Below, piece after piece: positions 33,210-64,000 of a stretch of 64,000 nt of DNA. Each line of letters opens with the position of its first letter. The first letter of the stretch is position 1. Both the position numbers and the translations under genes were made by a program. This DNA comes from Deltaproteobacteria bacterium (GTDB lineage Bacteria; Desulfobacterota; Binatia; UBA9968; JAJDTQ01), in NCBI GenBank assembly GCA_028818775.1, contig JAPPNE010000052.1:66697-130696 (forward strand), in the 5' to 3' direction. Under the pieces are notes generated by a model, which saw nothing but the letters and a program-made list of their open reading frames with translations, was not told where the DNA came from and did no database searches.

Positions 33210-33238
33210 GCCACGACGATCATTGACGGTACGCCGCC

Positions 33239-33472
33239 ATGTTCCTCAAGTTTCTGATACTGGGCTTGCTGGTCTACCTGTTCCTGGTGCTGCTCTACTC
33301 GAGCATCAAGAAGAAAGGCAAAGGCAGCGCCTCCGACCCCTCCCAGGGCGAGTCCATGGTCCTGGACCCCCACTGCAAGAGCTACGTCCCCAAGAACGAA
33401 GCCTACCGCTCCGGCGGCCACTACTTCTGCAGCGAAGAGTGCGCCCGCGCCTACGCGGCCCAGCAGGTCTGA
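33239..33472 (+). CDS. Small membrane-anchored protein with a C-terminal TRASH/YHS-like Cys motif
   Basis: The N-terminal TM is FLKFLILGLLVYLFLVLLY. The C-terminus reads C-x18-C-x3-C (HCKSYVPKNEAYRSGGHYFCSEEC). Length is 77 aa. Confidence 0.45.
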   Translation: MFLKFLILGLLVYLFLVLLYSSIKKKGKGSASDPSQGESMVLDPHCKSYVPKNEAYRSGGHYFCSEECARAYAAQQV

Positions 33473-33642
33473 GTTCAGGCGGCGGCCCGACCCGCCTCGA
33501 CATCTCACTGTTGGCGTTCCGTCGGCTTGAAGCGCCGCCCGAACGTGCGCGCCTGCGCGGTCTGTCATGGCCTACATTCTTTACAAACTGGACATTGTGT
33601 CGTATCCTTGTCCTTGGCTACGAAACAGGGTGTGAGGGTGAC

Positions 33643-34203: not shown

Positions 34204-34287
34204 GCGTGCCCACCTATCCTCGGCGCAGGATTCGACCGTTCTCTTGAAAGCCGCTGTCCAACTACCACCACGCACCAAACCCTTCCC

Positions 34288-45954: not shown

Positions 45955-48900
45955 TCATGCCTGCTCGTTACGTCGAGCAGCCGTAGATAGCCTTCGGAAC
46001 GCTGGGCAATCAGCCAAGCCGGGCGCTAATGTCTTGACCCGGTCAAGAGCGTTGCTCAAGTCGTATGGCACGATCGCGTCCTGCTCTTCTCCAATGGTCA
46101 AATCCAGCAACGTAAGGAGTGCGGCGGCCTTTCGTTCATCGTTGACCGCCAACTGTAGCTTCGAGACGGCTTCACTTCCAGTTCCAACCTCGCCATAGAG
46201 CCCATACTCTAGTGTTGACCAGCAATCAAAGGGGACAAGGAAACGCTTCATCTCATCAACGGCTTCGGCAAAAGCCTCGCCCGAGGCGGCGGGGATATGG
46301 GACAACTCTCGGCTTGTGTCGCGTGTCGTCAAGTCGCTTTCTTGTGGCCACACGCTCCGAAAGAACGGCTTGACGGCTACATGAAACAGCTTTTCAACGG
46401 ATCGTATTTCTCCTTCTTGCGGTGGCCCTTCTTCCTGGAAGTACCGGATAGCGCAGGCTGCAAACAGACGCGTTTCGTCGTCTGCTGATCGGAGCATTTG
46501 TGACACGCGGGGTTCGGCCACCAAGGGCCTACGTTCGTCTCGGAACGCCGTCAACACTTCGATGACAAGGCAAGAAACAAGCGATTCCCGGGCTTCTCGA
46601 CCGAGGCGATGGTCAGTTGCCCTTTCAATCACCTTGTCACCGATGATTTCAAGTAGAGGCTTGCCGCTTCGACGTGCGGCCTTGCGCCAAAGTGCAATGG
46701 ATTGGAAGTCATCCGCCAACAACGGGTCCACCAGATATTGTTTCGTCCAGTCAGGGTCTGCGTTCTGGAAGAATGGCAAACGTTCCGCTAGTCGGCAGTG
46801 TGCCACTAGGCCGCTATGGTCGGAGGCGCTGATGATTCGATCTCGCATCTGCCGCGCAGGGCTGCCGTCGGAGAAGGGGCGGGCATCTTTGCCGACGGCT
46901 TGGCAGGCGGCCAGGAAGACTTCAATGAATTGTCCCGCTGGTGTGTTGAGAGTGTCGATATCCAGGGACTCTTGCTGGTCACCCGAAGAGTTGGTCAGGA
47001 TATGGTCCCGGTCGTTAGCGACGGCATTGGTCCTTTCGACTGCAATAGGCCAAGCTTGCAGCCAGACGGGCAAGCCGTGTTCTGATCGGATGACATATCG
47101 ACTCCAACTGAAGAGCCAGTGGCTGATACCCCAGATGGCTTCCGTAAGGTTCGTCTCCGACAGGTTCCTCAGCAGATACAGGATACGGTTTGCCTCATCT
47201 TGTGGCTGGGGTGGTGGTTCAAGACTCGGCGTCGGGGGAGATGGCGAATGAAGCGAAAGGAAACAATCCCAAAGGCGCGGAAACTCCTCCCCGGCCCTAG
47301 TGAATGATTCCAAGTCCGAGAGAAGGAGCACGGCACTACCGGCCCGTTGGAGCCAAGCTTTGGCGGAGTTGTCGATCCAATGAACTCCATCGTGTGACAG
47401 TTCCTCGTTCAGTGCCCGAAGGCGGGCCTCTCCTTCAAGCAGGTCATATGGAGTGTCGGCCGAGAGCCGCGGAACGGGATGCGCCTGTGCATCGAAAAAC
47501 CCGCCATCCACGCGCATGTCTTCGAGTTGGGGAAGTTCCTTGATTCGTTTGAGCAACCATCGGCGGGTTTTTGGCGCTATGATGCCGCCGGCGACTTCCA
47601 CTCGTTTGACTTCACGTGCGGCACAGTACCGTCTGCGAGTTTTGAGTTTGTGCGGCGGACCCTTGCACAAACGCTGGACAATCGTTTCCTGAACGTCCCG
47701 CCGAAGTTCCTTAACGCGTCTTGCCCTCAGTTCGGTGATCTCGGGGAATTCATCCAGACCCCAAAGCTCGTAGTCAGATAGTGTCACCAGGAAGTCACCG
47801 ACATCGTCAGCGCTTACCAACTGTGGATCCCGGGCGATTGCGGCCCATAGGCGCCGGTGGACGCCAGACCGCGACAACTGCCAGCCTGGGAAGAAGGGCG
47901 TGGCGGCCTGCTGATCGAGTTCGGAAATGCGGATGACAATTTCGTGAAGCAACTTGACCGACGGCGCGATTCCATCATTAAAGAGATCGGGCTCACCGCC
48001 CTCATGGCCGAATGCTTCTTCGACGTCTCTACCCTTCCCGTGGGGACGAACGAAATACACACGGTGAGGACTTTCCCAAGGCACCTCACGGCCTTCATCA
48101 GTCTTGTAGATCCGATTGATGACGTTGAGCCCGTATTGGACTGAAGATGCCAGCCCGTCTGCCAGTTCCTTCAGGAATTGTATTTCTGAAACCGTGCCTA
48201 TGTGGAGGTCGCCGTAGTCGTTCAGATTACCCAGGTTGACGCTCGTCAGGTTCGCCGACAGAAGGTCTTCAAAGATCTTTGGGTGTCGAGGCCTTTCCTC
48301 AATCGCTTTGACCTCCAGACGAGGCGCGAACAGATCCACAATCGCTGAAATCAGGGCGCCGGAACGCTCGCCTTTGCCGAGTCGATCACGGATCGTTACA
48401 AATGCCATCGCCGGATGGTCCCTGATCGGGCGATTAGACCAGCTTTCCTCGATCAAGCGCCATGCAGTCGCATAGGGTTCCTTCAACTCAGGACTGCCGT
48501 AATCGTTCAGTAGCTCGTCTATTGCGATCCGTTTGGTACTCCAGTTGGATTCTTTGAGCGCCCAATCGATCGTGGCTGGCTCAGCAAGCCGGTTCTTCAG
48601 AAACGTGGTCATGACTTGGGCGTGATGGCGGTCGGTCTCGCTCAACCCCGCCCATGAATGAATGGCGGTGGCTGGTCCGAACTTTTTTCCGGGCGTGGTC
48701 TCAATGATGGAATCCAGCCATCCGGGCTCGGCCTTCGCACCCGACGCCACACCTGCCAAGCGAATGCGTTCATTCGCATGCCCTCGCCTGAACAGGTGGT
48801 CGAACAGGTCACGATCAGCCTTGGGGGTGGCGGCTCTGCTCTCCCGTACGATCCGTCTTACCTCAACATCGACGGTTTTCGTCTTTCCGTTGATTGCGGA

Positions 48901-49896
48901 GAGTTTGGCCCACCGTTCAAGCGCATCGCGCAGCACGGAATGGTCTCCATTTCGAGCATCGTAGTGGATCGGGGTGATGCCCCGTGCCTTCCAGTCTTGC
49001 AATTCCACGGGGTCCCCAGAGCCAACGAAGGTAAACCGTTCTTTCAAATCGCTGAATCGGGCTCCGTCGGCGGCGACGGCGTTCAGCAGGTAGCGCATCG
49101 GCGGATCGTTGGCGCTATAGCCCGCCAGGACGAGATGGAAGAGGCGTGCGGCGTCGTAGATGAGATCAGGGACAATCCTCCGACGCAGATAGTATTCCCC
49201 GAGGTCCTGGTCCGACAACACGAGATCCGAGAAGCGAGCCGGATTCCGGTCCAAGGCTCCGTGAATATGGAGCACTCCAGCGAACTCCTTGCGCGTCGTG
49301 GGTCTCGGGATCGATCCCAACGCATAGGTTTGCACTGGGGAACCAAGGCGCTTGGCAGCGGCTTCGAGCAAGAGGTCAAAGTTGGTGGTCATGATCGTCG
49401 TGACGCCGCCGCGGTCGGCTAGGCGCATGAGCGCCCGATGTATTGGCGCCGGTTTGTCGCTTGCTTGGCGCAGCAGTTCCGCTACGGTGCTTCTGACCTT
49501 GCTCGTGATCTTGTTCTTTTCATGAGTTTGATCGTCCAGCCGGCGTTCAAGCATTCCCAAGACCACGTCGTACTCGCCGGCAACGAACCGCTTGACCTCT
49601 GCCTTTTGGTTATTCCTGAGCTTCGACCAACCCGGTTCTGTAGTGTCAAGTGCGCGGTTAGGAGTCTTCGGAAGGATTTCGTAGACGCTTGCATCAAGCC
49701 TTTCATAGACGTCGCGTACCAGTTCTCGGAAGTCAGGCAGCCCCGCAGGACGTGAGATACCCGCACCGCAGATGAAGAGTACTTCGCCCCGCGCATGTGC
49801 CAGAAGCAAGCGTTCCGGAATCTCCGGGAGGCCTGGGCTGAGCGAAACGGCGCGGTAAGCGTCGTCACCGTGATCGGAATGAGGTAAATTGCTCAT
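45955..49896 (-). CDS. Large (1313 aa) SIR2_2-domain protein, defence-associated sirtuin (DSR)-like
   Basis: The N-terminal ~330 aa carry SIR2_2/DHS-like motifs (LFICGAGISRPAGLPDF; VTTIMTTNFDLLLE; VLHIHGAL). These are followed by ~1000 aa with no recognised catalytic motif (helical/repeat-like). GC is ~57%. Confidence 0.65.
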   Translation of the reverse strand: MSNLPHSDHGDDAYRAVSLSPGLPEIPERLLLAHARGEVLFICGAGISRPAGLPDFRELVRDVYERLDASVYEILPKTPNRALDTTEPGWSKLRNNQKAEVKRFVAGEYDVVLGMLERRLDDQTHEKNKITSKVRSTVAELLRQASDKPAPIHRALMRLADRGGVTTIMTTNFDLLLEAAAKRLGSPVQTYALGSIPRPTTRKEFAGVLHIHGALDRNPARFSDLVLSDQDLGEYYLRRRIVPDLIYDAARLFHLVLAGYSANDPPMRYLLNAVAADGARFSDLKERFTFVGSGDPVELQDWKARGITPIHYDARNGDHSVLRDALERWAKLSAINGKTKTVDVEVRRIVRESRAATPKADRDLFDHLFRRGHANERIRLAGVASGAKAEPGWLDSIIETTPGKKFGPATAIHSWAGLSETDRHHAQVMTTFLKNRLAEPATIDWALKESNWSTKRIAIDELLNDYGSPELKEPYATAWRLIEESWSNRPIRDHPAMAFVTIRDRLGKGERSGALISAIVDLFAPRLEVKAIEERPRHPKIFEDLLSANLTSVNLGNLNDYGDLHIGTVSEIQFLKELADGLASSVQYGLNVINRIYKTDEGREVPWESPHRVYFVRPHGKGRDVEEAFGHEGGEPDLFNDGIAPSVKLLHEIVIRISELDQQAATPFFPGWQLSRSGVHRRLWAAIARDPQLVSADDVGDFLVTLSDYELWGLDEFPEITELRARRVKELRRDVQETIVQRLCKGPPHKLKTRRRYCAAREVKRVEVAGGIIAPKTRRWLLKRIKELPQLEDMRVDGGFFDAQAHPVPRLSADTPYDLLEGEARLRALNEELSHDGVHWIDNSAKAWLQRAGSAVLLLSDLESFTRAGEEFPRLWDCFLSLHSPSPPTPSLEPPPQPQDEANRILYLLRNLSETNLTEAIWGISHWLFSWSRYVIRSEHGLPVWLQAWPIAVERTNAVANDRDHILTNSSGDQQESLDIDTLNTPAGQFIEVFLAACQAVGKDARPFSDGSPARQMRDRIISASDHSGLVAHCRLAERLPFFQNADPDWTKQYLVDPLLADDFQSIALWRKAARRSGKPLLEIIGDKVIERATDHRLGREARESLVSCLVIEVLTAFRDERRPLVAEPRVSQMLRSADDETRLFAACAIRYFQEEGPPQEGEIRSVEKLFHVAVKPFFRSVWPQESDLTTRDTSRELSHIPAASGEAFAEAVDEMKRFLVPFDCWSTLEYGLYGEVGTGSEAVSKLQLAVNDERKAAALLTLLDLTIGEEQDAIVPYDLSNALDRVKTLAPGLADCPAFRRLSTAARRNEQA

Positions 49897-49926
49897 GACG
49901 GTTCAAGTGTAGCAGAGTAACCGCCC

Positions 49927-49970
49927 GTCAGCATGGCGGCAAGATGAGGTCAGCATGGCGGCAAGATGAG
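49927..49970. repeat. Perfect 22-bp tandem duplication (GTCAGCATGGCGGCAAGATGAG x2) in the divergent SIR2/mod intergenic region
   Basis: Read directly: 49927-49948 equals 49949-49970. Each unit contains the mini-ORF ATG GCG GCA AGA TGA. Confidence 0.9.
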
Positions 49971-50040
49971 GGTGGTAGGCCAAAGATGTTTGACGGCGGC
50001 AACGGTCGCGGCTTAACTTGAGGAAAGGAGAAATTCAGAG

Positions 50041-52797
50041 GTGGCAGGAAAGAAGAATACGGTGGGCCGAAAAGGAAAGACGCGCAGCGCCAGGAGTTAC
50101 GGGCATCCTGAGGCGGGTGCGCTACTCCGGCCGGACATCGGGATGCAGGCGCAGTTCCGCAAGAAGAAGCCGCTGGCCACCTACCGTTACGACACCTCGC
50201 TGTCTCCAGCCCTCGAATGGGACGGACAGAATTCCGGTCGGGAAGAGGGAGAAGCGAAAATCGCTTCGTTGGAGGACCGCATAGCGAGGCTGTCCGCGAT
50301 CGTCGATCCCGTCAACGGGGATCTCTCCGAAAGGGATGTCGCAAGGGCCAAGGAGGAGCTTGCCGCCGCCCGGGAAGACGCCACCGCGCTGAAGACGCTT
50401 TCCAAGCCCTTTCTCAACTGGGCTGGAAAGGCCGAACGGCTCTCCTTTGACGTGCCGACTCTGCCGTTGTTTGTGCACGAGCGTCTGTCCACGTCCGCGA
50501 TCCTGGAGACGTTGAAAGGGCATACCCGAGACCGTCAAGTGAACATGTTCGATCTGTTCGGGGAGAGCGATCTCCCGATCCACGATCGGCTGCTGAGGGC
50601 GTACGAGCATCAGAACGGGTGGGTGAACCGGCTGATCCTTGGCGACTCGCTGGTGGTGATGAACTCCTTACTCGGGTACGAGGGCGTGGGCGGTCAAGTG
50701 CAGACCATCTACATGGATCCGCCCTACGCCGTGAAGTTCGGGTCCAACTTTCAGCCCTTCGTGCGCAAGCGCGACGTCACCCATGGCGACGACGAGCACA
50801 TGGTGCGGGAGCCGGAGATGGTCCAGGCGTACCGGGACACCTGGGAACTCGGCCTGCATTCCTTCCTGACCTACCTGAGGGACCGGTTGCTGCTGGCGCG
50901 GGAGCTGCTCCATCCGTCCGGGAGCATCTTCGTCCAGATGTCCGATACCAATCTGCACCATGTCCGCGAGGTAATGGACGAGGTGTTCGGCGCGGAGTGC
51001 TTTGTCTCGCAGATCAGTTTCCAGACGACATCGGGATTTCAGACGAAGACGCTTGCGACCCTTGGTGATTTTATTCTGTGGTACGCGCGGGATCCGGAGA
51101 GGCTCAAGGTAAGGAAGTTGTTCGAGGAACAGCCCGTCGTGCTTGGTGAAGGCAACGCAAGATGGGTGCTTCTCCCGGACGGAAGCTACCGAGGAGTGAC
51201 CGCGGCCGAGAGGCGTGGAGAAGCGGCCGTACCAACAGAAAGCCGTCTTTATAGCCCGAGCGGAATGGAATCTCCTGGTTCACCGAGTCAACCGCAGCCG
51301 TTCGACTTCCAGGGTCGGAAGTTCGAACCGAATCACAATCGTCATTGGGCGGCCAATTATCCGATCGGTCTCGAACGCCTCGCTAGGGCAGGAAGAATAC
51401 ATGTTGCCGCCAATAGCTTGAGGTATCGCCGCTTCCCTTCAGATTTCCCATATAAGACCTTGGGCAATATTTGGACAGACACCATGACAGGAAGTTTCAC
51501 GGAGACGAAGTCCTACGTGGTGCAGACCAACCCCAAGGTAATCGAACGGTGCCTGCTGATGACATCCGACCCTGGCGATCTGGTATTCGATCCTACCTGC
51601 GGCTCGGGGACCACCGCGTATTGCGCGGAGAAGTGGGGGCGGCGTTGGATCACCACCGACACGTCGCGGGTGCCGCTTGCGCTCGCGCGCCAGCGCCTGC
51701 TCACCAGCACCTTCGAATTCTACCAGCTCAAGGAGCTGGGAAGGGGTCCGGCAGGAGGCTTCGAATATCGGCGCAGACAGAACGCCAAAGGAGAAGAAGT
51801 CGGCGGCATCGTGCCACACATCACCCTTGAATCCATCGCCAACGACGAGCCGGCAAAGGAGGAAGTGCTTGTTGACCGGCCGGAGACGGACGCTGGCGTC
51901 ACCCGCGTGAGCGGTCCGTTCTGTGTCGAGGCGACCATTCCGACGCCGGTTGATTGGGAAGGAGATGGTAAGGAAGACTCGGGCGATGCCTCCGCCGCCA
52001 AGGCTTATGCGAGTCACGTGAATCGCATGATCGCGGTGTTGCAGCATTCGCCGGTGCTCCGTCTCGGCGGCGGTCAGACCGTAACCCTTTCCAAGGTGCG
52101 TCTGCCCGCGCGGACCATGAGCTTGTCGGCCGAGGCCTCGGTCGAAGGCTATGGAGAGCAGACGGCTGCCATCGTCTTCGGTCCGGAGAACGGCGCAGTC
52201 TCGGAGTTGCTGGTGTTCGAGGCGGCGCGTGAGGCATATGCCAAGGGGTACGGCCACCTCTATGTCATCGGCTTCGCCATACAGCCTGATGCGCGGCGCC
52301 TGATTGAGGGTTGCGAGCAGACGGTCGGCGTACCCGCGACTTATGTGCAGGCGAGCATGGATTTGTTGATGGGAAATCTGCTCAAGAACCTGCGGTCGAG
52401 TCAAATCTTCTCAGTATGCGGTCTCCCGGACGTGCGGATCAGAAAATCTGCCAAGCAAGGCTATCAGGTCGAGCTTCGTGGTCTCGACGTGTTCGATCCG
52501 GTCGCGATGGACTCGGATCATCGGCAGGGGAGTGATGTCCCGGCGTGGTTCCTCGACACGGATTACAATGGACTCTGCTTCCACGTGTGCCAGGCGTTCT
52601 TCCCACGGACTTCGGCATGGGAAGGTCTCAAGCGTTCACTCCAAGGCGAGTTCGAGGACACCGTGTGGGCGCATCTGTCGGGGACTGTCAGCACTCCGTT
52701 CCAGGCTGGCGAGCACGGGCAGGTGGCAGTGAAAGTGGTCGATGATCGCGGAAACGAACTGATGGTCGTCAAGCCACTCTCGGAGGCGGATGGGTGA
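50041..52797 (+). CDS. mod: Type III R-M-type (beta-class) N6-adenine DNA methyltransferase Mod, unusually long (918 aa)
   Basis: Motif IV MDPPYA (aa ~224) precedes motif I FDPTCGSGTTAYCAEKWGRRWITTD (aa ~505), which is the beta-class order. An N-terminal coiled-coil-like segment and a ~350-aa C-terminal extension are present. GTG start with an AGGAG RBS. Confidence 0.75.
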   Translation: MAGKKNTVGRKGKTRSARSYGHPEAGALLRPDIGMQAQFRKKKPLATYRYDTSLSPALEWDGQNSGREEGEAKIASLEDRIARLSAIVDPVNGDLSERDVARAKEELAAAREDATALKTLSKPFLNWAGKAERLSFDVPTLPLFVHERLSTSAILETLKGHTRDRQVNMFDLFGESDLPIHDRLLRAYEHQNGWVNRLILGDSLVVMNSLLGYEGVGGQVQTIYMDPPYAVKFGSNFQPFVRKRDVTHGDDEHMVREPEMVQAYRDTWELGLHSFLTYLRDRLLLARELLHPSGSIFVQMSDTNLHHVREVMDEVFGAECFVSQISFQTTSGFQTKTLATLGDFILWYARDPERLKVRKLFEEQPVVLGEGNARWVLLPDGSYRGVTAAERRGEAAVPTESRLYSPSGMESPGSPSQPQPFDFQGRKFEPNHNRHWAANYPIGLERLARAGRIHVAANSLRYRRFPSDFPYKTLGNIWTDTMTGSFTETKSYVVQTNPKVIERCLLMTSDPGDLVFDPTCGSGTTAYCAEKWGRRWITTDTSRVPLALARQRLLTSTFEFYQLKELGRGPAGGFEYRRRQNAKGEEVGGIVPHITLESIANDEPAKEEVLVDRPETDAGVTRVSGPFCVEATIPTPVDWEGDGKEDSGDASAAKAYASHVNRMIAVLQHSPVLRLGGGQTVTLSKVRLPARTMSLSAEASVEGYGEQTAAIVFGPENGAVSELLVFEAAREAYAKGYGHLYVIGFAIQPDARRLIEGCEQTVGVPATYVQASMDLLMGNLLKNLRSSQIFSVCGLPDVRIRKSAKQGYQVELRGLDVFDPVAMDSDHRQGSDVPAWFLDTDYNGLCFHVCQAFFPRTSAWEGLKRSLQGEFEDTVWAHLSGTVSTPFQAGEHGQVAVKVVDDRGNELMVVKPLSEADG

Positions 52798-54443
52798 TCC
52801 GCACGGTTCGCATCCGGGGCTTCAAGCGTTTCGATGATGTGGAGTTCCGTCTGCCGGGGCACATGGTCCTGGCCGGTCCCAACAATACCGGGAAAACGAC
52901 GGTGCTTCAGGCTATCGCTTCATGGTCCCTTGCCTTGCGGCGGTGGCGTGAGCTCAACGACTTCAATCCTCGACAGGGTTATACGCGTGCGCCTATCGCG
53001 AGGCAGGCGTTTGCGGCGGTTCCTCTTCGGAGTTTCGATCTGATGTGGAAAGACCGCGAATATTGGGATCAGATCGAGATCGAGATCCGGCATGACGCCG
53101 GCTGGTCCGTGACGATGGAGCTTATCGCGGACAGCACTGAGCAGATCTATGTCCGCCCCAAGGTGGATGTGCCGGCTGATACGCTGCGCAAACTGGACCT
53201 TGGCGTGGTCTACGTACCTCCGATGACCGGATTGGAGACAAACGAACGGCTATTTCAGCCTGCTGCCATCGAGCAGATCCTCGGCCTCAGCCGTCCCGGC
53301 GAAGTGTTGCGCAATCTGCTGGTCGTCGCGAGCCTCGATGATGCCGCTTGGGCTGCAATTCAAGACTCTATAGGGAAGCTCTTCGGCTATGAGCTGCTAG
53401 TCCCTGACGCCAGTGGGCCGTATATCCGGGCCGAGTACAGAATGACGAAAGGGGGGCAGCCCCTTGATATCGCCAGCGCGGGTAGCGGGTTTCAACAGGT
53501 GCTGATGCTGCTCACGTTTCTCAATACGAGGGAGGGTTCGGTTCTCCTTCTCGACGAGCCCGATGCGCATCTTCACCTGATCCTGCAGGACGCCATCTAC
53601 TACGAGCTTCGCACCGTTGCCGCCCGTCATAGATCCCAGCTCGTCATTGCGACACACTCCGAGGTGATAATCAATTCGGTCGAGCCTCGCGAGCTATGTG
53701 TCACACTCAACGAGCCCCGGATGGTTGCCGACAATGAGGAGCGCAGCCGACTGATTAAATCACTTGGTGTACTCAGTAACGCAGATGTGATGCAGGCGTT
53801 TGAGGTCCGCGGTGTGCTGTACGTCGAAGACTACACGGACATCAACATCCTGCGGACCTGGGCCACGAACCTGAAACACAAGGCCGAATCCCTGCTCACT
53901 ACCGAGTTGATGTGGAAGCCGGTGGTTTTCCAGGCGCAGGAAGGGCGGCCAGGGATCAAGGCGCGAGACCATTTCGACGCGCTACGACTCGTGCGGGACG
54001 AATTACCTGGTCTGGAACTGCTCGACGGTGACGCTCACCCCGCGGTACCGGAGACAGAAATCACCCGGACGGGCTTGCAGCGGCTTCGCTGGCGACGTTA
54101 CGAGATTGAGAGTTATCTTGTTCACCCGCATGCGCTGGCCCGCTTCGTCGAGGCAGAAGTCGGAGTCGGCTCCGCTGAGCTGCATGTCCAGGACATGCTC
54201 ACCTACTGGCGCAACGAATTTCCTCCGGCGGTAATGGATGACCCGCTGGGAGAGCACGAGTTCCTGAACGCAACGAAAGCGCGCTTGCGACTGCTTCCCC
54301 CTTTGCTGGACGCCGCGGGACTCCACGGGCTACCACACACTCGCTATCATGAGATCGCGGCGCTGATGCTCCCGGAGGAGATTCATCCAGAAGTGGTCGA
54401 GAAACTCGACGCCATTTGCCGTGCTTTCGGGGTCGAGCCATGA
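52794..54443 (+). CDS. OLD/AAA_21-family ABC-type ATPase with a C-terminal TOPRIM/DUF4435-like region (Gabija GajA / PARIS AriAB / class-2 OLD-like)
   Basis: GTG 52794 overlaps the mod TGA (GTGA), and the stop overlaps the res ATG (ATGA). Walker A GPNNTGKTT, signature-like ASAGSGFQQVL, Walker B LLLDEPDAHLH and ATHSE are present. The C-terminal region has GVLYVEDYTDINIL (E…DxD-like). Confidence 0.6.
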   Translation: MIRTVRIRGFKRFDDVEFRLPGHMVLAGPNNTGKTTVLQAIASWSLALRRWRELNDFNPRQGYTRAPIARQAFAAVPLRSFDLMWKDREYWDQIEIEIRHDAGWSVTMELIADSTEQIYVRPKVDVPADTLRKLDLGVVYVPPMTGLETNERLFQPAAIEQILGLSRPGEVLRNLLVVASLDDAAWAAIQDSIGKLFGYELLVPDASGPYIRAEYRMTKGGQPLDIASAGSGFQQVLMLLTFLNTREGSVLLLDEPDAHLHLILQDAIYYELRTVAARHRSQLVIATHSEVIINSVEPRELCVTLNEPRMVADNEERSRLIKSLGVLSNADVMQAFEVRGVLYVEDYTDINILRTWATNLKHKAESLLTTELMWKPVVFQAQEGRPGIKARDHFDALRLVRDELPGLELLDGDAHPAVPETEITRTGLQRLRWRRYEIESYLVHPHALARFVEAEVGVGSAELHVQDMLTYWRNEFPPAVMDDPLGEHEFLNATKARLRLLPPLLDAAGLHGLPHTRYHEIAALMLPEEIHPEVVEKLDAICRAFGVEP

Positions 54444-57400
54444 ACCCGCACGAAGTTTCCGAGCCAATCCTGAACGCACCCTTCGATGAACCCAGGGAGC
54501 ACTGGTGGATTACGGAGCACGATCCGCCGGAGCGGCGTCCGGGCCGGCGTCCAGCCATGTATTTTTACCGCCGCCCGGGCAGCGAGCCGTCGTTGGAGCA
54601 GCAGGGAACCGGCACTGCCATTGAGTTGAAGCTGGTGAACCGAGTCCGTGCCAAGCTTGCCGAATGGCGGCCCTTGGCGCTGCGCGGCGAAGGCGGCGTG
54701 ACCCGAACCACCGTAGAGTTGTTGCGTTACTGGCGGCAGGAAGGACGGAGACACCGGTTGTTCTTTGCCCAGATCGAGGCCGCCGAGACGATCATTTTCC
54801 TTACCGAGGCCCGCCCTGATTTCCTGCAGGGGATCCGTGTCCCGCTCGACGAACCGGGCGAGGAGGCCCGGGCGGACGGGTTCCGAGCCTTTCGTCGCTA
54901 CGCTTGCAAGATGGCTACGGGCACGGGAAAGACGACCGTCATGGGAATGCTCGCTGCTTGGAGCATTCTCAACAAGGTCGCAGCCCGTGGGGACGCTCGT
55001 TTTTCGGACGTGGTGTTGATCGTGTGTCCCAACGTCACGATCCGAAACCGGCTTGAGGAACTCAAGCCGCAAGCCGGTGAGGCCAGCCTTTACCGCACGC
55101 GTGACCTCGTCCCGTCACACCTCATGCCGCAGCTCGCACGTGGACACGTGCTTGTCACCAACTGGCACGTGTTTGAGCCGAAGACCGCGCAGGTCGCCGG
55201 CCAGTCGGCAAAGGTCCTCCGCGCCGGACGCGAGATCCGCACGAGGGAGACCATACGTATTGGCCCCAAGACAACCACGGCGCGCGGCATCCGTTACCTG
55301 ACTTTGGCCGATCTCGAACGGCAGGCGGCCGCTGGCCTGATTGCCGTTCGTGATGAACAGCGGGACCGGCAAGGCAATCTCAAGTCGGTTTCCGTGGAAT
55401 CGTTCCGGTACGTCGAGAGTGATGCCAAGCTCATCGACCGCGTTCTCGGGCGAGAAATCGGAGGCAAGGGCAACATTCTGGTCATGAACGACGAAGCACA
55501 TCACGCGTATCGGCTCAGGCGTGTTGAGCCAGAAGAGGGCGAGGAGGATCTGTTCGGCGAAACCGATGACAGCGAGGAGTTTTATAGGGAAGCGACGGTA
55601 TGGGTCGACGGGCTTGACCGTGTCCACAAGCATCGCGGTATCAACCTGTGTGTAGACCTCTCTGCCACCCCCTACTACCTGGGCCGGGTCGGACAGGACG
55701 CCAACCGGCCGTTTCCGTGGGTTGTCAGTGATTTCGGACTTGTCGACGCCATCGAGTCGGGACTCGTCAAGATTCCGCAGCTTGCGGTTCGGGACACAAC
55801 CGGCAGCCACATCCCTGGCTACTTCAACATCTGGCGCTGGATCCTGCCGAGATTGACCCCTGCGGAGCGCGGCGGCCGGCGGGGAAGCGTGAAGCCCGAA
55901 GCGGTCCTCAAGTATGCGCATGTTCCAGTCGCCATGTTAGGTGGACTGTGGGAGTTGCTACGCGAGGAGTGGAGCAAACGGGATGGTGAAAGCCGGCCGC
56001 CCGTATTCATCATCGTGTGCAAGAACACCGCGCTCGCCAAGGTCATTTACCAGTGGCTCGCCGAGGACAAGGCGCCGGTGGGGATTCCGCCCGCGCGTCT
56101 TGAAGGTCTGCGGAACACGGACGGGAACCTTTGCACCATACGTGTGGACTCCAAGGTTGTGCGCGAGTCCGACAGCGGACAGACGAGGTCCGATGCGGAC
56201 CAATGGATGCGCGTGACGCTGGATACAGTCGGTAAGACTGACTGGCCGCGGGACGGACAGAGACGGCCCATCTACCCTGAAGGCTTCGAGACGCTGGCCA
56301 ACAAACTCGAACGACCACTTCATCCACCTGGCCGTGACGTAAGGTGCATTGTGAGCGTCGGAATGCTCACCGAGGGTTGGGACTGCAACACCGTGACCCA
56401 TATCGTCGGACTTCGCCCGTTCATGTCGCAGTTGCTTTGTGAACAGGTGGTCGGGCGAGGGCTGCGGAGGTCCAGCTATGCCGTGGGGGAGGACGGGAAA
56501 CTCGGTGAGGAAGTCGCGAAGATCTTCGGTGTACCGTTCGAGATCGTGCCCCTGAAGGAGAATCCCCCGGACAACGGAGCGCCGCCACCTCCGAAGACTT
56601 GGCGAATACGGGCAGTGCCCGAGAAGGCAGCTCTGGAGATCCGGTTCCCCCGCGTCGAGGGTTACACGCAAGGGATCAGAAACCGCGTAAAGGTGGACTG
56701 GGAAAGCATCGCGCCTCTGCGTCTCGACCCCATGGACATCCCACCTGAAGTGGAGATGAAGGCAGGCCTTCCGAGCAACACCGGGCGGCCTTCGCTGGTG
56801 GGTCCTGGACAACTTGAACGCGTCGATCTCAACCCGTACCGCAACAATACACGGTTGCAGCAATTGGTGTTCGAGATGGCGCGGGATCTGACACGGGATT
56901 ATCGGGAGCAACCGGGTTGCGACGCGCCTCCTCACGTACTGTTTACACAACTCGCCACCATCGTGGATCGCTACATCAGGGAAAAGGTGGTCCCTGTCGA
57001 ACCGGCGCGAGACATCGATGCGTTCCTCTCCCCTTGGTACGGTTGGCTGGTGGAACGCCTTGTCGCCGCCGTCCGCCCGGACCATGGCAACGGAGACGAG
57101 GCAGAACTCCCGCGCTACGAGAGCGGCCGCGGTCCCGGATCTACAGCCGAGGTCGACTTCGAGACGCGGCGAGTGCCCTATCCCGTCGTCAAGAGTCACG
57201 TCAACGCGGTCGTGCCCGACACCGCGAAGTGGGAGCAGTCCGCCGCCTACCGTTTGGACACTCACGAACTCGTCCACTCGTTCGTCAAAAACGCTGGTCT
57301 CGGTTTCGCGATCCCCTACCTGCACAACGGCGAACAGCACGAATACCTGCCGGATTTTATCGTCCGGTTGACCAGAGACACCGCCCACTACCTGATTCTT

Positions 57401-57562
57401 GAAACCAAGGGCTATGACCCCATAGCCCAAGTCAAGTCACAAGCAGCCCACCGGTGGGTCAACGCTGTAAACGCAGACAGGCGATTCGGCACATGGAGCT
57501 ACGAGTTGGTGACGGACATGGGTAAGGTGGGCGAAGCCGTGAATCGGGCAGCCATGTCGTGA
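54440..57562 (+). CDS. res: Type III restriction enzyme Res subunit (SF2 helicase plus C-terminal PD-(D/E)xK nuclease)
   Basis: Walker A MATGTGKTT, DEAHH box and motif VI-like GMLTEGWDCNTVTHIVGLRP are present. The C-terminal nuclease motif is YLPDFIVRL…LILETKG. Length is 1048 aa. Confidence 0.75.
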   Translation: MNPHEVSEPILNAPFDEPREHWWITEHDPPERRPGRRPAMYFYRRPGSEPSLEQQGTGTAIELKLVNRVRAKLAEWRPLALRGEGGVTRTTVELLRYWRQEGRRHRLFFAQIEAAETIIFLTEARPDFLQGIRVPLDEPGEEARADGFRAFRRYACKMATGTGKTTVMGMLAAWSILNKVAARGDARFSDVVLIVCPNVTIRNRLEELKPQAGEASLYRTRDLVPSHLMPQLARGHVLVTNWHVFEPKTAQVAGQSAKVLRAGREIRTRETIRIGPKTTTARGIRYLTLADLERQAAAGLIAVRDEQRDRQGNLKSVSVESFRYVESDAKLIDRVLGREIGGKGNILVMNDEAHHAYRLRRVEPEEGEEDLFGETDDSEEFYREATVWVDGLDRVHKHRGINLCVDLSATPYYLGRVGQDANRPFPWVVSDFGLVDAIESGLVKIPQLAVRDTTGSHIPGYFNIWRWILPRLTPAERGGRRGSVKPEAVLKYAHVPVAMLGGLWELLREEWSKRDGESRPPVFIIVCKNTALAKVIYQWLAEDKAPVGIPPARLEGLRNTDGNLCTIRVDSKVVRESDSGQTRSDADQWMRVTLDTVGKTDWPRDGQRRPIYPEGFETLANKLERPLHPPGRDVRCIVSVGMLTEGWDCNTVTHIVGLRPFMSQLLCEQVVGRGLRRSSYAVGEDGKLGEEVAKIFGVPFEIVPLKENPPDNGAPPPPKTWRIRAVPEKAALEIRFPRVEGYTQGIRNRVKVDWESIAPLRLDPMDIPPEVEMKAGLPSNTGRPSLVGPGQLERVDLNPYRNNTRLQQLVFEMARDLTRDYREQPGCDAPPHVLFTQLATIVDRYIREKVVPVEPARDIDAFLSPWYGWLVERLVAAVRPDHGNGDEAELPRYESGRGPGSTAEVDFETRRVPYPVVKSHVNAVVPDTAKWEQSAAYRLDTHELVHSFVKNAGLGFAIPYLHNGEQHEYLPDFIVRLTRDTAHYLILETKGYDPIAQVKSQAAHRWVNAVNADRRFGTWSYELVTDMGKVGEAVNRAAMS

Positions 57563-57664
57563 GTGCGGTAGTCTCGGTGTGTTGGTCGGATTGCGGCTGA
57601 GTTGATGTGTATTTGAGTTGATAGGACGTGGCTCGTAACTGCCGCAAAAGACCTGAACCTCAAA

Positions 57665-58876
57665 ATGACCTGGGAACCTGTCTGGGCACTACCGAATATT
57701 GACTTGGACAAACCTGTCGAGAGTCCAACCTTTGCGCTCGTTCCTGCTTCGGATCCCCGTGTCCAATTTCTGGAAAAGGAACATCGGAATTTCCGAATCT
57801 TCATGAGTCGGTTCCAGGATCCGCATGGGCATCCCATTCGGCCTACTCTCATAATTCGTCGCACCGATGTTGCCGAAAATTTCAGGGGGGCGGATGTAGC
57901 TGCCAGTTTTCGTGATGTCCTTGTCGCCTGTACCGTCCCACTTGCGAGATCCCTGGACATCATCTACGACAACAGTCGTGACAGAGTCCGATATGGCAGT
58001 TTCTTTTGGGTCTACCCTTGGATGCTTGATCGAAGCTACGAACGGATCATTGCGCATACGCCAGCAATACTGGCCCTGCACGATGTGAATCATTTGAGAG
58101 GACAGTCGTCCCCGGAACTGGCGCCAACGACGTTGCGACGGCGAGACCTTGATGAGCCGCTGTTACAGGAACTTCTCCGCCGCTGGACAGCACGTTATGA
58201 AACCATTTCACCGAAATGGGCGGATGTCGCGCTTTTTCGATCTCTGAATATGGCGAACCAAGCCTGTCTTCTTCCGGCGGGCGCCGATGCTGTTATGCAC
58301 GACTACGGGAGAATAATCGCCTTGTGGACAGCCGCCTGTGAGATTCTTGCTCATCCCGGAGGCGACGGACAAGCTAACCTAAGGAAGGTGTTTGAACTGC
58401 TGCGGAGAATACCCTGGGTGGACCAAAAATGCGGGCATCGGCGATATCTGATCCGACACAAGAAACGGACAGATCGAGAGAATCTGGCTGGTTGGCTTTA
58501 TTGGCGCATCTACTGCTGCCGCAATGATTTTCTTCACGGCAACCCGGTTGCGATTGAGAATTTACTCACTCCCAACTCCCGCCGTGCACTCGACCATCAC
58601 GCGGCTACTCTATATCGGTTGGCGCTGTCCTCCTTTCTGCGCTTGGCATGGAGTGAACCCTTGCCGGCAAGTGACGACGCCGACATTGTTGCGGAATATG
58701 TCGCAAGAAAAATGCAGTTCCAAGAACCACAAGTGGGATGTGAGGAGGCCTTGAGATTGTGTCGAGTGTCGGTTGCTCAACAACGCCGAGCTCGAAGGAA
58801 AGCGATTGAGAGGAGGCGGAGGATGGCCTTCTCAATGAACCTAGGACAGAATCGGACGGGACACGCACGACCGTGA
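57665..58876 (+). CDS. Hypothetical 403-aa protein with a HEPN-like Rx4H motif (possible Abi-type effector); ~53% GC
   Basis: No family was recognised. CCRNDFLHGNPV fits the HEPN Rx4-6H signature. GC is markedly lower than any neighbour. It follows res after a 100-bp AT-richer spacer. Confidence 0.35.
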   Translation: MTWEPVWALPNIDLDKPVESPTFALVPASDPRVQFLEKEHRNFRIFMSRFQDPHGHPIRPTLIIRRTDVAENFRGADVAASFRDVLVACTVPLARSLDIIYDNSRDRVRYGSFFWVYPWMLDRSYERIIAHTPAILALHDVNHLRGQSSPELAPTTLRRRDLDEPLLQELLRRWTARYETISPKWADVALFRSLNMANQACLLPAGADAVMHDYGRIIALWTAACEILAHPGGDGQANLRKVFELLRRIPWVDQKCGHRRYLIRHKKRTDRENLAGWLYWRIYCCRNDFLHGNPVAIENLLTPNSRRALDHHAATLYRLALSSFLRLAWSEPLPASDDADIVAEYVARKMQFQEPQVGCEEALRLCRVSVAQQRRARRKAIERRRRMAFSMNLGQNRTGHARP

Positions 58877-59654: not shown

Positions 59655-59864
59655 TCACAGGACCTTGTACCCCTTCCCCAGCACCACCCGCAGCAGGCCG
59701 TCGATGTGGGTCACCTCGGGATCGAACTCGATGACGGCGACCTGCCGCTCTACCGAGAAATCCACCTCCGCGACGCCGGGGGTGCTCCCGAAGGCTTCGG
59801 AGAGATCGGCTACGGCGGTTTCCGTCAGATCGCCGATGGAGATGATGGCGGTCTTGGTGTTCAT
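59655..59864 (-). CDS. HMA-fold (heavy-metal-associated-like) small protein lacking the CxxC metal site
   Basis: TAIISIGDLTETAVADLSEAFGSTPGVAEVDFSVERQVAVIEFDPEVTHIDGLLRVVLGKGYKV follows the HMA betaalphabetabetaalphabeta pattern, with GDLTETAV in place of GMTCxxC. Confidence 0.45.
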   Translation of the reverse strand: MNTKTAIISIGDLTETAVADLSEAFGSTPGVAEVDFSVERQVAVIEFDPEVTHIDGLLRVVLGKGYKVL

Positions 59865-60358
59865 GGCGTGTCGGGTTTCGCATCGGAGCCGGAGGGCTGA
59901 TTCCGCCCCAGCACGCGCTTGATCTCCAGGCCGGCGCGTTCGGCGTCCGCCTCCGGTATGTACATCTCGAAGGCGGCAAAGAGCTGGCGCTCCTCGCTGC
60001 GGATGTGCTGCTCCAGCAGGTCGCCGAAGTCGAAGAGAAACTTCCGCATCTCCTTCGCGTCGCTCAACCGGGCAACCATCTCGCGGAACTTCCGGTGATC
60101 GCCTTGGAGCCGGGCCACCAACCCCCGGGATTCTTCATGGGCGGCCATCAGCGGAAACAGCACCGTCTCTTCGGCCTCGAAATGAGGTTGCAGGTTCTCG
60201 CTGAAGAAGCGCGATGCCTGTGCGGCGCATGCCTCCATGGCCGCGGGGTCGCCCGGGTTGAGCTGGCCGAGGGCGTGCTTGCGGCAACGCAGCGCCAGCG
60301 CCAGGCCGTGATGATGGTCGTGGGAAAGCGGTATCAGTGCGGGGTGTCGTTTGGCCAT
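59861..60358 (-). CDS. Hemerythrin HHE cation-binding domain protein
   Basis: Histidine/Glu-rich helical pattern (HDHHHGLAL…HFEAEETVLFPLM…LEQHIRSEERQLFAAFE). Length is 165 aa. Confidence 0.6.
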   Translation of the reverse strand: MAKRHPALIPLSHDHHHGLALALRCRKHALGQLNPGDPAAMEACAAQASRFFSENLQPHFEAEETVLFPLMAAHEESRGLVARLQGDHRKFREMVARLSDAKEMRKFLFDFGDLLEQHIRSEERQLFAAFEMYIPEADAERAGLEIKRVLGRNQPSGSDAKPDTP

Positions 60359-60432
60359 GGATTGCCACGCAAATTGACGATGCCGGGTCTATGGGCTACC
60401 CTTCGTGCCACAAAGATCCTGGAGGTTGATAT

Positions 60433-60918
60433 ATGGCGGACGACATGATCGTCAAACGCGAAGTGGTGATGGAGGCCGACGCCGAGATGCTGGGGCGGCA
60501 GCAGAAGCGTGGCGAGGCGCGCGGTTTCACGGTGATGTGCGACGAGGGCGGGCACATCGGTGGCGACAACACGGCGCCGCCGCCCATGGCGTATTTCGCG
60601 CTGTCCGTCGGATTCTGACTGCTCACCCAGCTTTCCCGGTACGGGGAAATGATGAAGGTGAAGATCGACAAGGCGCGCGTGCACGTGACCGCGCGCTTCA
60701 GGAACGAGGGCTCGGTGTTGCGGGAGACGGTGCAGGCCGAGGGCGTCGGCGTCGAGACGAAGCTCGACGTGGAGTCCGACGAGCCTCCGGAACGCGTCGC
60801 CGCGGTGATCCGCAACTCGGAGCAAGGCTGCTACATCATGCAGACGGTCAAGAATCCGACGCCGGTGGAAACACGGGTGACGCTCAACGGAGCGGATTTC
60901 GACACGAGCAGGAAGTAG
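60433..60918 (+). CDS. OsmC/Ohr-family peroxiredoxin with an in-frame TGA at the peroxidatic-Cys position (candidate selenoprotein; otherwise a pseudogene)
   Basis: ORFs 60433-60618 and 60649-60918 share a frame, separated by a single TGA (60616-60618). The combined reading is …[23 protein letters not shown][U]LLTQL…[12 protein letters not shown]…, aligning with the OsmC AAHAAC… and …KAGCP… motifs. A GGAGG RBS lies 8 nt before ATG 60433. A hairpin sits at 60631-60651. Confidence 0.55.
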
Positions 60919-60970
60919 TCGGGCAAGACCGGGGCCGAGGCAGGATCGGTTCCGCGGACGGGGAAAGGCC

Positions 60971-61840
60971 ATGGAGGGTTCCGAGGAAGTGATGGAAGCG
61001 CTGGTCTTCGACGTCGATCAGTCGGAGTTCGAGGCGCGCGTGCTGGAGCGCTCCCGGGAGACGCCGGTGGCGGTGGACTTCTGGGCGCCGTGGTGCGGCC
61101 CGTGCCGGGTACTGGGTCCGGTGCTGGAGCGGCTCGCCGAGGAGTACGGCGGGAAGTTCCTCCTGGCCAAGGTCAACGTGGACGAGAACCAGGAGCTGGC
61201 GGCCGCCTTCGGCATACAGGGGATCCCGGCGGTCAAGGTCTTCAAGGATGGCGGCTTGGCCGCGGAGTTCACCGGGGCGCTGCCCGAAACGGGCGTGCGC
61301 GAGATCCTGGAGCGGGTGGTGCCCTCACGCGAGGACGAGTTGACCGCGGAGGCGGATCAATTATGGTCCGCGGGTGAGGCCGGAAAGGCGCTGGCCATCT
61401 ACGAGCAGGTGCTGGAGGAGGCGCCGAACCATGCGGGCGCACTCCTGGGGCTGGGGCGGGGGCTGCTTGAGACGGATGAGGAACGCGCCCTGTCCATGCT
61501 TGAAAGAGTTCCCCTGGGCGACCCGGAACGAAACGAGGCCGACCGGCTGATTGCCCGTCAGAAACTCAGTGCGGGCGAAGGCGCCGACGTCGAGTCCCTG
61601 CGCGAGGAACTGGCGGCGGCCCCGGATCGCCTCGACCTCCGCTTCCGGCTGGGCCAGGCGTTGGCCGCCGAAGAGCGCTACGAGGCCGCGCTCGAAGAGT
61701 TCCTGGCGGTGCTGAAACAGGACCGCGCCTTCGAGGACGACGGCGCCCGCAAGGCCATGGTACAGATCTTCGAAGTGTTGGGACGGAACGAACTCGCCGA
61801 CAGGTTCCGCTCCGAGATGGCCAAGGTCCTGTTCAGTTAA
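60971..61840 (+). CDS. Thioredoxin-domain plus TPR protein (CnoX/YbbN-like chaperedoxin)
   Basis: [21 protein letters not shown] is the Trx motif. A C-terminal TPR-like helical region follows. Length is 289 aa. Confidence 0.75.
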
Positions 61841-61845
61841 ACACT

Positions 61846-62958
61846 CTACGCCTGCGCCCCGGCGGCTTCCCTTGACGCCACCGCCGTAGCATCCAGCCGC
61901 GCCCGCAGCCGCGGGTAGAACCTGAGCGGGTTCTCGAACAGGATCTTGTGCTTCAGCTCGTCGCTGAGGTCTTCGCGCCCCAGGAGGTGCGGGATGTCCT
62001 CGCTGAAATCCCGCTGGTCTCGTTCGTGGGGATAGTCGGAGGCCCAGAGGAGCGTGTGCTCCGGCACCAGGCGGGCGGTCTCGGGCAGCAGCGTCTCCTC
62101 CACCTCGGCGGCGAAGTAGATGTTGCCTTCCCGGAAATACTCGCTGGGCTTGCGCTTGCAGTTCGGCGAGTAGTGGCCCTTGCGCTCGTACTCTTCGTCC
62201 AGGCGGTCCATCAGGTAGGGGACCCAGCCCGCGCCGCACTCCAGCACGCCGAAGCGCAGCTTGGGGAACAGCTCGAACACGCCTTCACAGATCATCGCCA
62301 CGATCTGCCGGAACTGCGCGAACGGATGCTCCAGGGTGTGCGCCACCATGAAGTTGCGGGTGTCGTCGATGCCCAGGTCCGGAAAGCTCATGCCGCCATG
62401 GGGTGACACCGGCACGTCCAGCCGCTGGGCCTCCTCCCACAAGGGGTAGAAGTCGGGTCCGCTGAAGAGCTTCCCGCCCGGGGCGGCGGAAGGCAGCACC
62501 GCGCCCACCATCCCCAGCTCCTCGACGGCCCGGCGAAGCTCCTTGACCGCCTCGTCGATGTCCTGGATGGGCAGCAGCGCCACGCCCACCAGGCGCGGGC
62601 TCACACGCATGAAACGGTCGTGCAGCCAGTCGTTGTAGGCCCGTGCCATGGTGATGGCCCACTCGTGGTCGCGGATGGCCGCGTGAGTGAGCCCCTGGGT
62701 CGGGTACAGCACGGTCAGCTCGATGCCGTTCTTGTCGAGGAAGTCGAGCCAATGCCCGGCGTTGGGTCCGGTGCCGCCGCCGACCCAGCCGCCCGGCTGC
62801 CTCAGCGAGCGCAGGTAGCCGTCCATGGTAAGGCCCGGCCAGAAACTGTAGGACCGGTGCCATTCCAGTTCAGCGTACGGACCGCCGATGTAGTCGCGAA
62901 GCTCGTCGTCGATCTCCATCACGTGCCCGTCGGCGTCGATGATGCGTTGTTGGGACAT
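61846..62958 (-). CDS. Amidohydrolase-2 family (TIM-barrel metal-dependent hydrolase, ACMSD-like)
   Basis: From ATG 62958: MSQQRIIDADGHVME…HGGM…LWASDYPHE is the amidohydrolase_2 signature. The table ORF (to 63183) over-extends at the 5' end. Confidence 0.6.
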   Translation of the reverse strand: MSQQRIIDADGHVMEIDDELRDYIGGPYAELEWHRSYSFWPGLTMDGYLRSLRQPGGWVGGGTGPNAGHWLDFLDKNGIELTVLYPTQGLTHAAIRDHEWAITMARAYNDWLHDRFMRVSPRLVGVALLPIQDIDEAVKELRRAVEELGMVGAVLPSAAPGGKLFSGPDFYPLWEEAQRLDVPVSPHGGMSFPDLGIDDTRNFMVAHTLEHPFAQFRQIVAMICEGVFELFPKLRFGVLECGAGWVPYLMDRLDEEYERKGHYSPNCKRKPSEYFREGNIYFAAEVEETLLPETARLVPEHTLLWASDYPHERDQRDFSEDIPHLLGREDLSDELKHKILFENPLRFYPRLRARLDATAVASREAAGAQA

Positions 62959-63127
62959 GGCCTTCTCCCTTCGGATCAATAGCGTTTCGATGCCGTAGAT
63001 AGTAGCCCGGATGGCACGGTCGGGCAAGCTGGAAGGCGTCCGCGGCGGCTTTCTTCCCGCCTCTACCCATGTCAAAATTGATTCTCTATAATCGCAACCG
63101 GTGCATCCAAGCGAGGAGGTACGTGCC

Positions 63128-64000
63128 ATGTCGAGACTGCGCGGTTTGATGTTGGCGGCAGCCGTCCTGGTCGTGTTCGCCACCGCGGCGTACGCGCAAC
63201 GCGGCGCCGACGGCGAGCTCAGGATGCTCTACTGGCAGGCGCCGTCGGTCCTGAACCCGTTCCTCTCCGGGGGGACCAAGGACATCCACGCCGCGGCGTT
63301 CGTCATCGAGCCGCTGGCGCGCTACGACGACGACGCCAACATGGTCCCGGCGCTGGCGGCGGAGATACCCACCGTCGAGAACGGCGGGGTGGCCGCCGAC
63401 CTCAAGTCCGTCACCTGGAAGCTCCGGAAAGGCGTGACCTGGTCCGACGGGACGCCGTTCACCGCCGCCGACGTCGCCTTCACGGCGACCTACTGCATGC
63501 ACCCGGACGGAGGCTGCAACGCCGCGCCCCGGTTCGAGAATGTGGCCGCGGTGGAGGCGGTGGACGACCACACCGTGCGGATCTCCTTCAAGGTCGCGAT
63601 GCCGTTCCCCTACGGGCCGTTCGTGGGCTCCACCTGCCCGGTGATCCAGAAGAAGCAGTTCGAGGGCTGCCTGGGAGCCAAGGCACCCGAATGTACCCAA
63701 CAGAACTTCGGCCCCATCGGCACCGGCGCCTTCAAGGTGAAGGAGTTCCGGCCCAACGACGTGGTGCGCTACGAGATGAACGAGCGCTACCGCAACCCCG
63801 ACCAGCCGGCCTTCGCCTCGGTCCTGGTGAAGGGCGGCGGCGACGCCGTGTCGGCGGCCCGGGCGGTGCTGGAAACCGGCGAGTTCGACTACGCCTGGAA
63901 CCTCCAGGTGGAGCCCGAGATCCTCGCCGCCATGGAAAAGGCGGGCAAGGGCAAGGTGGTGTCGGCCTTCGGCACCCTGGTGGAGCGGCTGATCGTGCAG
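63128..64000 (+). CDS. ABC transporter substrate-binding protein, family 5 (peptide/nickel type), 5' part (continues beyond the window)
   Basis: ATG 63128 has a GGAGG RBS. Signal peptide MSRLRGLMLAAAVLVVFATAAYA|Q, then the SBP_bac_5-like pattern (LRMLYWQAPSVLNPFLS…). The frame is open to the window end and is not in the supplied track. Confidence 0.6.
   Translation, partial: MSRLRGLMLAAAVLVVFATAAYAQRGADGELRMLYWQAPSVLNPFLSGGTKDIHAAAFVIEPLARYDDDANMVPALAAEIPTVENGGVAADLKSVTWKLRKGVTWSDGTPFTAADVAFTATYCMHPDGGCNAAPRFENVAAVEAVDDHTVRISFKVAMPFPYGPFVGSTCPVIQKKQFEGCLGAKAPECTQQNFGPIGTGAFKVKEFRPNDVVRYEMNERYRNPDQPAFASVLVKGGGDAVSAARAVLETGEFDYAWNLQVEPEILAAMEKAGKGKVVSAFGTLVERLIVQ

Follow-up and report, generated by a model that had tools for sequence, protein, structure and literature searches.

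A conserved in-frame UGA in an OsmC-related gene of a Binatia-type genome, very probably encoding a selenoprotein of the UxxT family

Positions 60433-60918 of the window, by which is meant the whole 64-kb stretch of DNA analysed here, very probably form one gene, the product of which is a selenoprotein of 161 residues belonging to family NF041052, OsmC-related (seleno)protein ("OsmC-like protein, UxxT"). The TGA at 60616-60618, which gene callers take as a stop, is almost certainly a genuine selenocysteine (Sec) codon, as judged from the comparison of homologous loci. An earlier note on this DNA had proposed a selenoprotein with Sec in place of a redox-active Cys, and this interpretation is supported by the family score of the read-through product, by the conservation of the TGA, by the existence of Cys-containing counterparts and by a constrained hairpin located downstream of the codon.

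The gene lies on the forward strand in a single frame that runs from ATG 60433 to a TAG stop at 60916-60918, and comprises 161 codons. The sole interruption of this frame is the TGA at 60616-60618, which terminates an upstream ORF of 61 residues (60433-60618). The sequence, the ORF list and the translation all bear out the earlier description of two same-frame ORFs parted by this TGA alone, and the read-through product contains the two segments on which that description relied, ALSVGF, directly followed by the TGA, and EQGCYIM. The TGA is codon 62 of the complete gene and opens a U-L-L-T motif, which conforms to the published UxxT signature; the second, resolving-type Cys of the OsmC/Ohr pair is Cys133, encoded by the TGC at 60829-60831 and identified from the alignments and from the structures 3cje and 2onf. 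A GGAGG Shine-Dalgarno sequence, read directly from the DNA, is located at 60421-60425, with the ATG 60433 placed 7 nt further on. It favours initiation at this codon, and hence a translated N-terminal part.

A six-frame scan of the 64 kb returns four in-frame TGAs flanked on both sides by a coding GC3 signature. The TGA at 60616 is the only one of the four left unexplained by abutting genes or antisense signal, the other three candidates having been set aside on these grounds as gene junctions or antisense signal. Among the high-GC3 ORFs of the window, TGA is an ordinary and common stop codon. An alternative genetic code, in which UGA would be a sense codon throughout, is rejected for this reason.

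The assignment of the read-through protein to the OsmC family, suggested in the earlier note from the letters of the sequence, was confirmed with profile searches in which Sec was entered as Cys. The protein reaches 183.3 bits with the NCBIfam model NF041052, "OsmC-related (seleno)protein", against a cut-off of 95 (E 2.2e-54), the match spanning residues 13-153 and positions 2-144 of the 144 of the profile. With Pfam OsmC (PF02566), it scores 58.7 bits against a cut-off of 27.5. The Ohr equivalog NF052637 yields 13.8 bits against a cut-off of 240, which places the protein outside this model, and no canonical OsmC or Ohr chain is found by phmmer among the PDB matches of the read-through protein at E<=1. 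The closest solved relative by sequence is 3CJE (5.2e-11 with the single sequence and 3.8e-19 with a profile), followed by Ta0195 (2ONF) and GSU2788 (2OPL). Position 62 and Cys133 both align with cysteines of 3CJE and 2ONF. The former structure is that of Jann_2040, an OsmC-like hydroperoxide resistance protein of the Cys form; it shares ~22-30% identity with the window protein and possesses a Cys where the latter would have Sec. Both 3CJE and E. coli YhfA (1ML8) are structural-genomics entries without established activity.

The fold of the 161-residue protein was approached through P0003, a Cys-containing homologue with 54% identity, the AlphaFold (AF2) model of which has a pLDDT of 80.9. This model matches the structures of 3CJE, YhfA (1ML8), OsmC and Ohr, 3CJE being the closest (Foldseek 1.7e-10), and an OsmC/Ohr-type fold is thereby predicted for the window protein. 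E. coli OsmC (1QWI/1NYE) and P. aeruginosa Ohr (1N2F) display the same fold and position their two cysteines likewise, the first within the central helix and the second where a later helix begins. In these canonical proteins, however, the peroxidatic residue is Cys and not Sec, and the window protein belongs to neither of the two subfamilies.

The homologues retrieved from a large protein database are mostly truncated: 71 of 74 are C-terminal fragments of 88-103 residues, which indicates that this TGA ends the gene calls in many genomes. In the three homologues of full length, the TGA column is occupied by Cys, within FCTLTQ in P0003 and within FCLLTQ in P0023 and P0040. The earlier placement of the TGA at the position of the first Cys is borne out by these three proteins as well as by 3cje and 2onf. 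The conservation of the second Cys, which had likewise been claimed, is also verified, C133 being invariant in both alignments, A1 and A2.

At the DNA level, 27 loci were found in one-genome-per-species collections. They belong mostly to Candidatus Binatia, and the rest mainly to "Deltaproteobacteria", Thermodesulfobacteriota and Syntrophobacterales MAGs. Codon 62 is TGA in 26 of the 27, with the frame intact on both sides, down to 62% amino acid identity, and the more distant metagenome members L028-L034 likewise carry the TGA. Carriers of the TGA gene include complete Binatia chromosomes, e.g., OZ244070.1, OY761465.1, OZ220712.1 and OZ243916.1. Metagenomes contain 453 relatives, and among the best 80 of these the TGA is present in 79 and replaced by TAA in one (L110). 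Altogether, more than 100 independent loci share the TGA and its hairpin, the TGA-bearing sequences ranging from 62 to 97% amino acid identity.

Both flanks of the TGA evolve as coding sequence. Substitutions relative to the window at codon positions 1, 2 and 3 number 153, 160 and 502 upstream of the TGA and 303, 179 and 657 downstream, a bias towards the third position that is the signature of one coding frame running on either side. Codons 63-72, the ten that separate the TGA from the following ATG, are conserved as protein and agree with the Cys forms; they must therefore be translated.

Two loci depart from this picture. In L110, a TAA replaces the TGA of an otherwise intact gene (around position 1266 of a 1.6-kb metagenome contig). 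In L027 (3001-3470), one nucleotide of a stretch of 7 G is missing; the TGA, the hairpin and the C-terminal frame downstream of it are intact. This frameshift is probably an assembly error, given the G run in a MAG and the preservation of everything that follows.

A hairpin with a 7-bp stem is found at 60632-60648. Its stem is formed by the pairs U60632-A60648, U60633-A60647, U60634·G60646, C60635-G60645, C60636-G60644, C60637-G60643 and G60638-C60642, closed by the triloop G60639 U60640 A60641, and it is separated from the UGA by a 13-nt spacer. The earlier note had been right on its existence and on the spacer, while the limits that it gave (60631-60651) are 1-2 nt off. The folding check that it had proposed was run with RNAfold on 60610-60675: the hairpin does fold, but with an unexceptional energy (z = 0.37 against dinucleotide shuffles). 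Hairpins of the same class follow 20 of the 1606 TGA triplets of the window (1.2%). Rfam reports no SECIS-type match over the whole window at the gathering cut-off, nor with permissive settings over 60560-60720, where only chance snoRNA matches at E ~8 are returned. Since folding energy is uninformative here, comparative evidence was used instead to assess the hairpin.

This evidence is of several kinds. The hairpin nucleotides are invariant in all 26 genome loci that have the TGA. In a set of 30 distinct Sec-form sequences, 82 degenerate codons stand at positions where 90% of the sequences or more agree on the amino acid, and only five of them make use of a single codon; these five are the consecutive codons 68-72 (TCC CGG TAC GGG GAA), which are those of the hairpin. 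The two most divergent Sec forms, L028 and L032, have Ala instead of Ser68 and His instead of Glu72, and in them the pair 60634·60646 changes from U·G to G-C, a compensatory replacement of both partners by which the stem is preserved; the covariation thus concerns one pair, in two related sequences. Paired cells make up 96.1% of the total, compared to 38-78% after displacement of the 3' arm by 1-3 columns. Among the best 80 of the 453 metagenome loci, the 17-nt hairpin is identical in 68, carries changes that preserve pairing in 8 and has one mismatch in 4, the pairing of the variants having been assigned by hand. In the eight, U·G pairs result from changes of A to G, G·U pairs from C to U and U-A pairs from G to A.

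Cys-form genes offer a further comparison. The two for which DNA is available, L035 and L036, encode LSRYSEM and IERYGRM at this place, hence almost the peptide of the Sec forms, by different codons and have no hairpin; the hairpin thus travels with the TGA. Selection on the hairpin at the nucleotide level is therefore upheld by the freezing of codons 68-72 and by the absence of the structure from the Cys-form genes.

In the E. coli fdhF gene, the minimal SECIS is a 17-nt stem-loop that starts 11 nt after the UGA. The window hairpin is likewise a 17-nt stem-loop, 13 nt after the UGA, and both are located within the coding sequence at a short fixed distance from the codon, with G and U in the apical loop. 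The window hairpin departs from that of fdhF in three ways: the bulged U is missing, the loop is smaller, with three nucleotides, and the sequence is different. Bacterial SECIS elements have been described as possessing a small apical loop with a guanosine and as lying immediately downstream of the UGA (PMC1088965). The hairpin at 60632-60648 fits this wording, with a G in its small apical loop and a position immediately 3' of the UGA. Taken with its conservation, these likenesses point to a bacterial SECIS that would bind SelB.

Other explanations of the interrupted frame were weighed against the selenoprotein reading. The locus might be a nonsense pseudogene, as the earlier note had considered, i.e., an OsmC-like gene killed by the mutation of a Cys codon (TGC or TGT) to TGA. 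A single base change turns TGC into TGA, gene callers do give split ORFs of 61 and 89 residues, and the TAA of the L110 contig and the frameshifted L027 genome locus could be taken as further signs of decay. A lesion is nevertheless hard to reconcile with the presence of the same TGA in 26/27 genome loci and 79/80 of the best metagenome loci at 62-97% amino acid identity, with two halves that stay in frame and accumulate mostly third-position substitutions, and with a hairpin constrained at the nucleotide level; the shift in L027, for its part, fits an assembly error. The pseudogene is refuted on these grounds, and the probability left to it is negligible. A second possibility would be that of two genes, a 61-residue peptide and an 89-residue C-terminal OsmC fragment starting at ATG 60649, the products of which would assemble as a split protein. 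The public annotation of a near-identical relative as two ORFs, MCY4486589.1 and MCY4486590.1, agrees with such an arrangement, as do the ATG codons at 60649 and 60652. Yet codons 63-72, which would then lie between the two genes, specify a conserved peptide, homologous to the helix found after the Cys in proteins of full length; no well-spaced Shine-Dalgarno sequence precedes 60649, a GGGGA run ending 1 nt ahead of it; and the stop is TGA rather than a mixture of stop codons across the loci, the TAA of L110 excepted. A pair of separate genes is thus extremely improbable. Taken together, the conserved TGA, the coding selection on its two sides, the translated linker and the normal use of TGA as a stop leave practically no room for a pseudogene, a split gene or an alternative code.

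Recoding of the UGA by something other than Sec is very unlikely, if not quite to the same degree. It might consist in the insertion of Trp, Cys or Arg by a near-cognate tRNA, stimulated by the hairpin, or in that of Cys by means of tRNA-Sec under selenium limitation. Downstream hairpins can stimulate read-through in general, and no Sec machinery was found in the window and the related loci, which would both be compatible with such recoding. Against it, the TGA takes the place of a Cys that is redox-active, and such a replacement is the signature of Sec use. Moreover, the family, with the same UxxT motif, already figures among the catalogued selenoprotein families, and the hairpin has a loop that starts with G and a distance from the UGA that are typical of bacterial SECIS elements.

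The search for the Sec machinery covered the window, which is 64 kb of a MAG contig of 131.66 kb, and the loci related to it. ARAGORN detects no tRNA-Sec in the 64-kb window or in 34 related loci, and Pfam reveals no selA, selB or selD among the 50 ORFs of the window. A tblastn search with SelA, SelB and SelD over 486 kb (the window and related loci) gives no match, which is a weak negative as the E. coli queries are approximate. We infer Sec decoding by the host from the comparative evidence, which is the usual criterion for selenoproteins in computational work and is strong in the present case.

A mechanism can be proposed for the selenoprotein. Translation would start at ATG 60433 and, when the ribosome reaches the UGA, the hairpin, acting as a SECIS, would recruit SelB·GTP·Sec-tRNA(Sec), Sec being inserted instead of termination taking place. 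The product is expected to fold as an OsmC/Ohr-like protein, in which Sec62, within the long central helix, would replace the N-terminal, peroxidatic-type Cys and have Cys133 as its partner. By analogy with OsmC and Ohr, Sec62 and Cys133 may form a peroxidatic/resolving pair and the protein may be a hydroperoxide reductase; its chemistry would likely be the reduction of a hydroperoxide, or of some other oxidised substrate, with a selenenic acid and next a selenenylsulfide as intermediates. Recycling of the enzyme would probably be ensured by the thioredoxin-TPR protein encoded on the same strand 52 nt downstream, as suggested by synteny. Ohr, in comparison, is recycled by lipoylated proteins, whereas the conserved neighbour of the window gene is this thioredoxin-TPR protein.

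The latter is encoded at 60971-61840 (forward strand) and combines a thioredoxin domain with a WCGPC motif (Pfam Thioredoxin, 1.8e-26) and TPR repeats (TPR_20/TPR_19); with the thioredoxin model TIGR01068, it obtains 97.2 bits against a cut-off of 96.8. No terminator-like site was found between the two genes, and their co-transcription is likely. The thioredoxin-TPR gene is adjacent to the Sec-OsmC gene in L001-L021, L030, L031, L033 and L034, and this shared gene order makes its product a candidate reductant of the Sec-OsmC protein. On the other side, a divergent gene (59861-60358, reverse strand) encodes a hemerythrin-HHE domain protein (Pfam Hemerythrin, 1.4e-16) and is followed downstream by a gene for a small HMA domain protein (59655-59864, reverse strand; Pfam HMA, 1.2e-05), both of which are kept in L001-L021 and L033. 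A convergent gene for an Amidohydro_2 protein (61846-63183, reverse strand) lies 3' of the thioredoxin-TPR gene. The neighbourhood from 59655 to 63183, i.e., HMA, hemerythrin, Sec-OsmC, thioredoxin-TPR and Amidohydro_2, is shared by about 22 related loci, but these neighbours are missing from the more distant group L022-L027.

In a more distant clade, an 81-residue CMD-domain gene is inserted between the Sec-OsmC and thioredoxin-TPR genes (L030 3421-3666, L034 3456-3701 and L031 868-1113). It was considered as a second selenoprotein and rejected, as it ends with TAG or TAA and has no Cys/Sec motif.

Elsewhere in the window, a defence/restriction island extends from 45955 to 58876, with a GC3 lower than that of the rest. 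It harbors genes for a SIR2 protein of 1313 residues (45955-49896, reverse strand; PADLOC Dsr1 match, 2.8e-58), a Type III methyltransferase (50041-52797, forward strand; 1.9e-136), an AAA ATPase of the NsnB/AriA/GajA/PtuA kind (52794-54443, forward strand), a ResIII/type III restriction-like helicase (54416-57562, forward strand) and a 403-residue protein with no family match (57665-58876, forward strand). The flanking regions of the related Binatia loci contain no equivalent of the last of these genes. A further region of atypical GC3, from 33136 to 38009, comprises a gene for a Type IIG restriction-methyltransferase-like protein of 1003 residues (34998-38009, reverse strand) and its neighbours, namely a 264-residue ORF without family assignment that adjoins it (34288-35082, reverse strand) and a gene for an HTH protein (33136-34203, forward strand).

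The family to which the window gene belongs is not new. An OsmC-like selenoprotein family (COG1765/YhfA-like, UxxT) was first reported in 2005 from the Sargasso Sea metagenome (PMC1088965). It reappeared in the GOS data and in an Olavius symbiont metagenome (sources including PMC2398784), the UxxT motif of the family being given in PMC2398784 as well, and it is listed in reviews of 2022 (PMC9312934) and 2026 (PMC13188914). With its U-L-L-T motif, its hairpin and its HMM score, the window gene falls squarely within this family. It shares with NF041052 and the OsmC-like UxxT proteins the same motif, Sec in place of the first Cys, a hairpin and Cys-containing homologues, and no essential difference sets it apart. 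By its sequence, it is thus a member of an already catalogued selenoprotein family to which NCBI devotes a model. Members of the family were first found in marine plankton, whereas that of the window is from a Candidatus Binatia/"Deltaproteobacteria" MAG lineage. In the literature library searched, none of the papers connects Binatia or Binatota with selenocysteine or selenoproteins. Binatia may therefore be a Sec-using host that has gone unreported, which would be a modest extension of the known family.

The importance of the gene is mainly one of annotation, and it opens no new question on selenoproteins or recoding. In the NCBI record of a near-identical relative, it is represented by a "hypothetical protein" of 61 residues (MCY4486589.1) and an "OsmC-related (seleno)protein" of 99 residues (MCY4486590.1). 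Gene calls of ENA, JGI and Logan split the gene likewise in dozens of contigs. As it is called in pieces of 61 and 89-99 residues, the real 161-residue selenoprotein is missing from the proteomes of Binatia-type MAGs. The correct model joins both ORFs with Sec at codon 62, and the public split annotation needs to be corrected accordingly.

For the biology of the lineage, the gene is an indirect sign, read from sequence, that UGA would be decoded as Sec, and the conserved pair of Sec-OsmC and thioredoxin-TPR genes constitutes a candidate redox couple. A wider hypothesis, put forward tentatively and with the odds somewhat against it, is that Binatia are unreported Sec users in which the Sec-OsmC and thioredoxin-TPR proteins, with the hemerythrin/HMA pair, make up a dedicated selenium-dependent system of hydroperoxide reduction or repair. 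If true, this would be a two-component system distinct from both the lipoyl-dependent Ohr and the classical OsmC.
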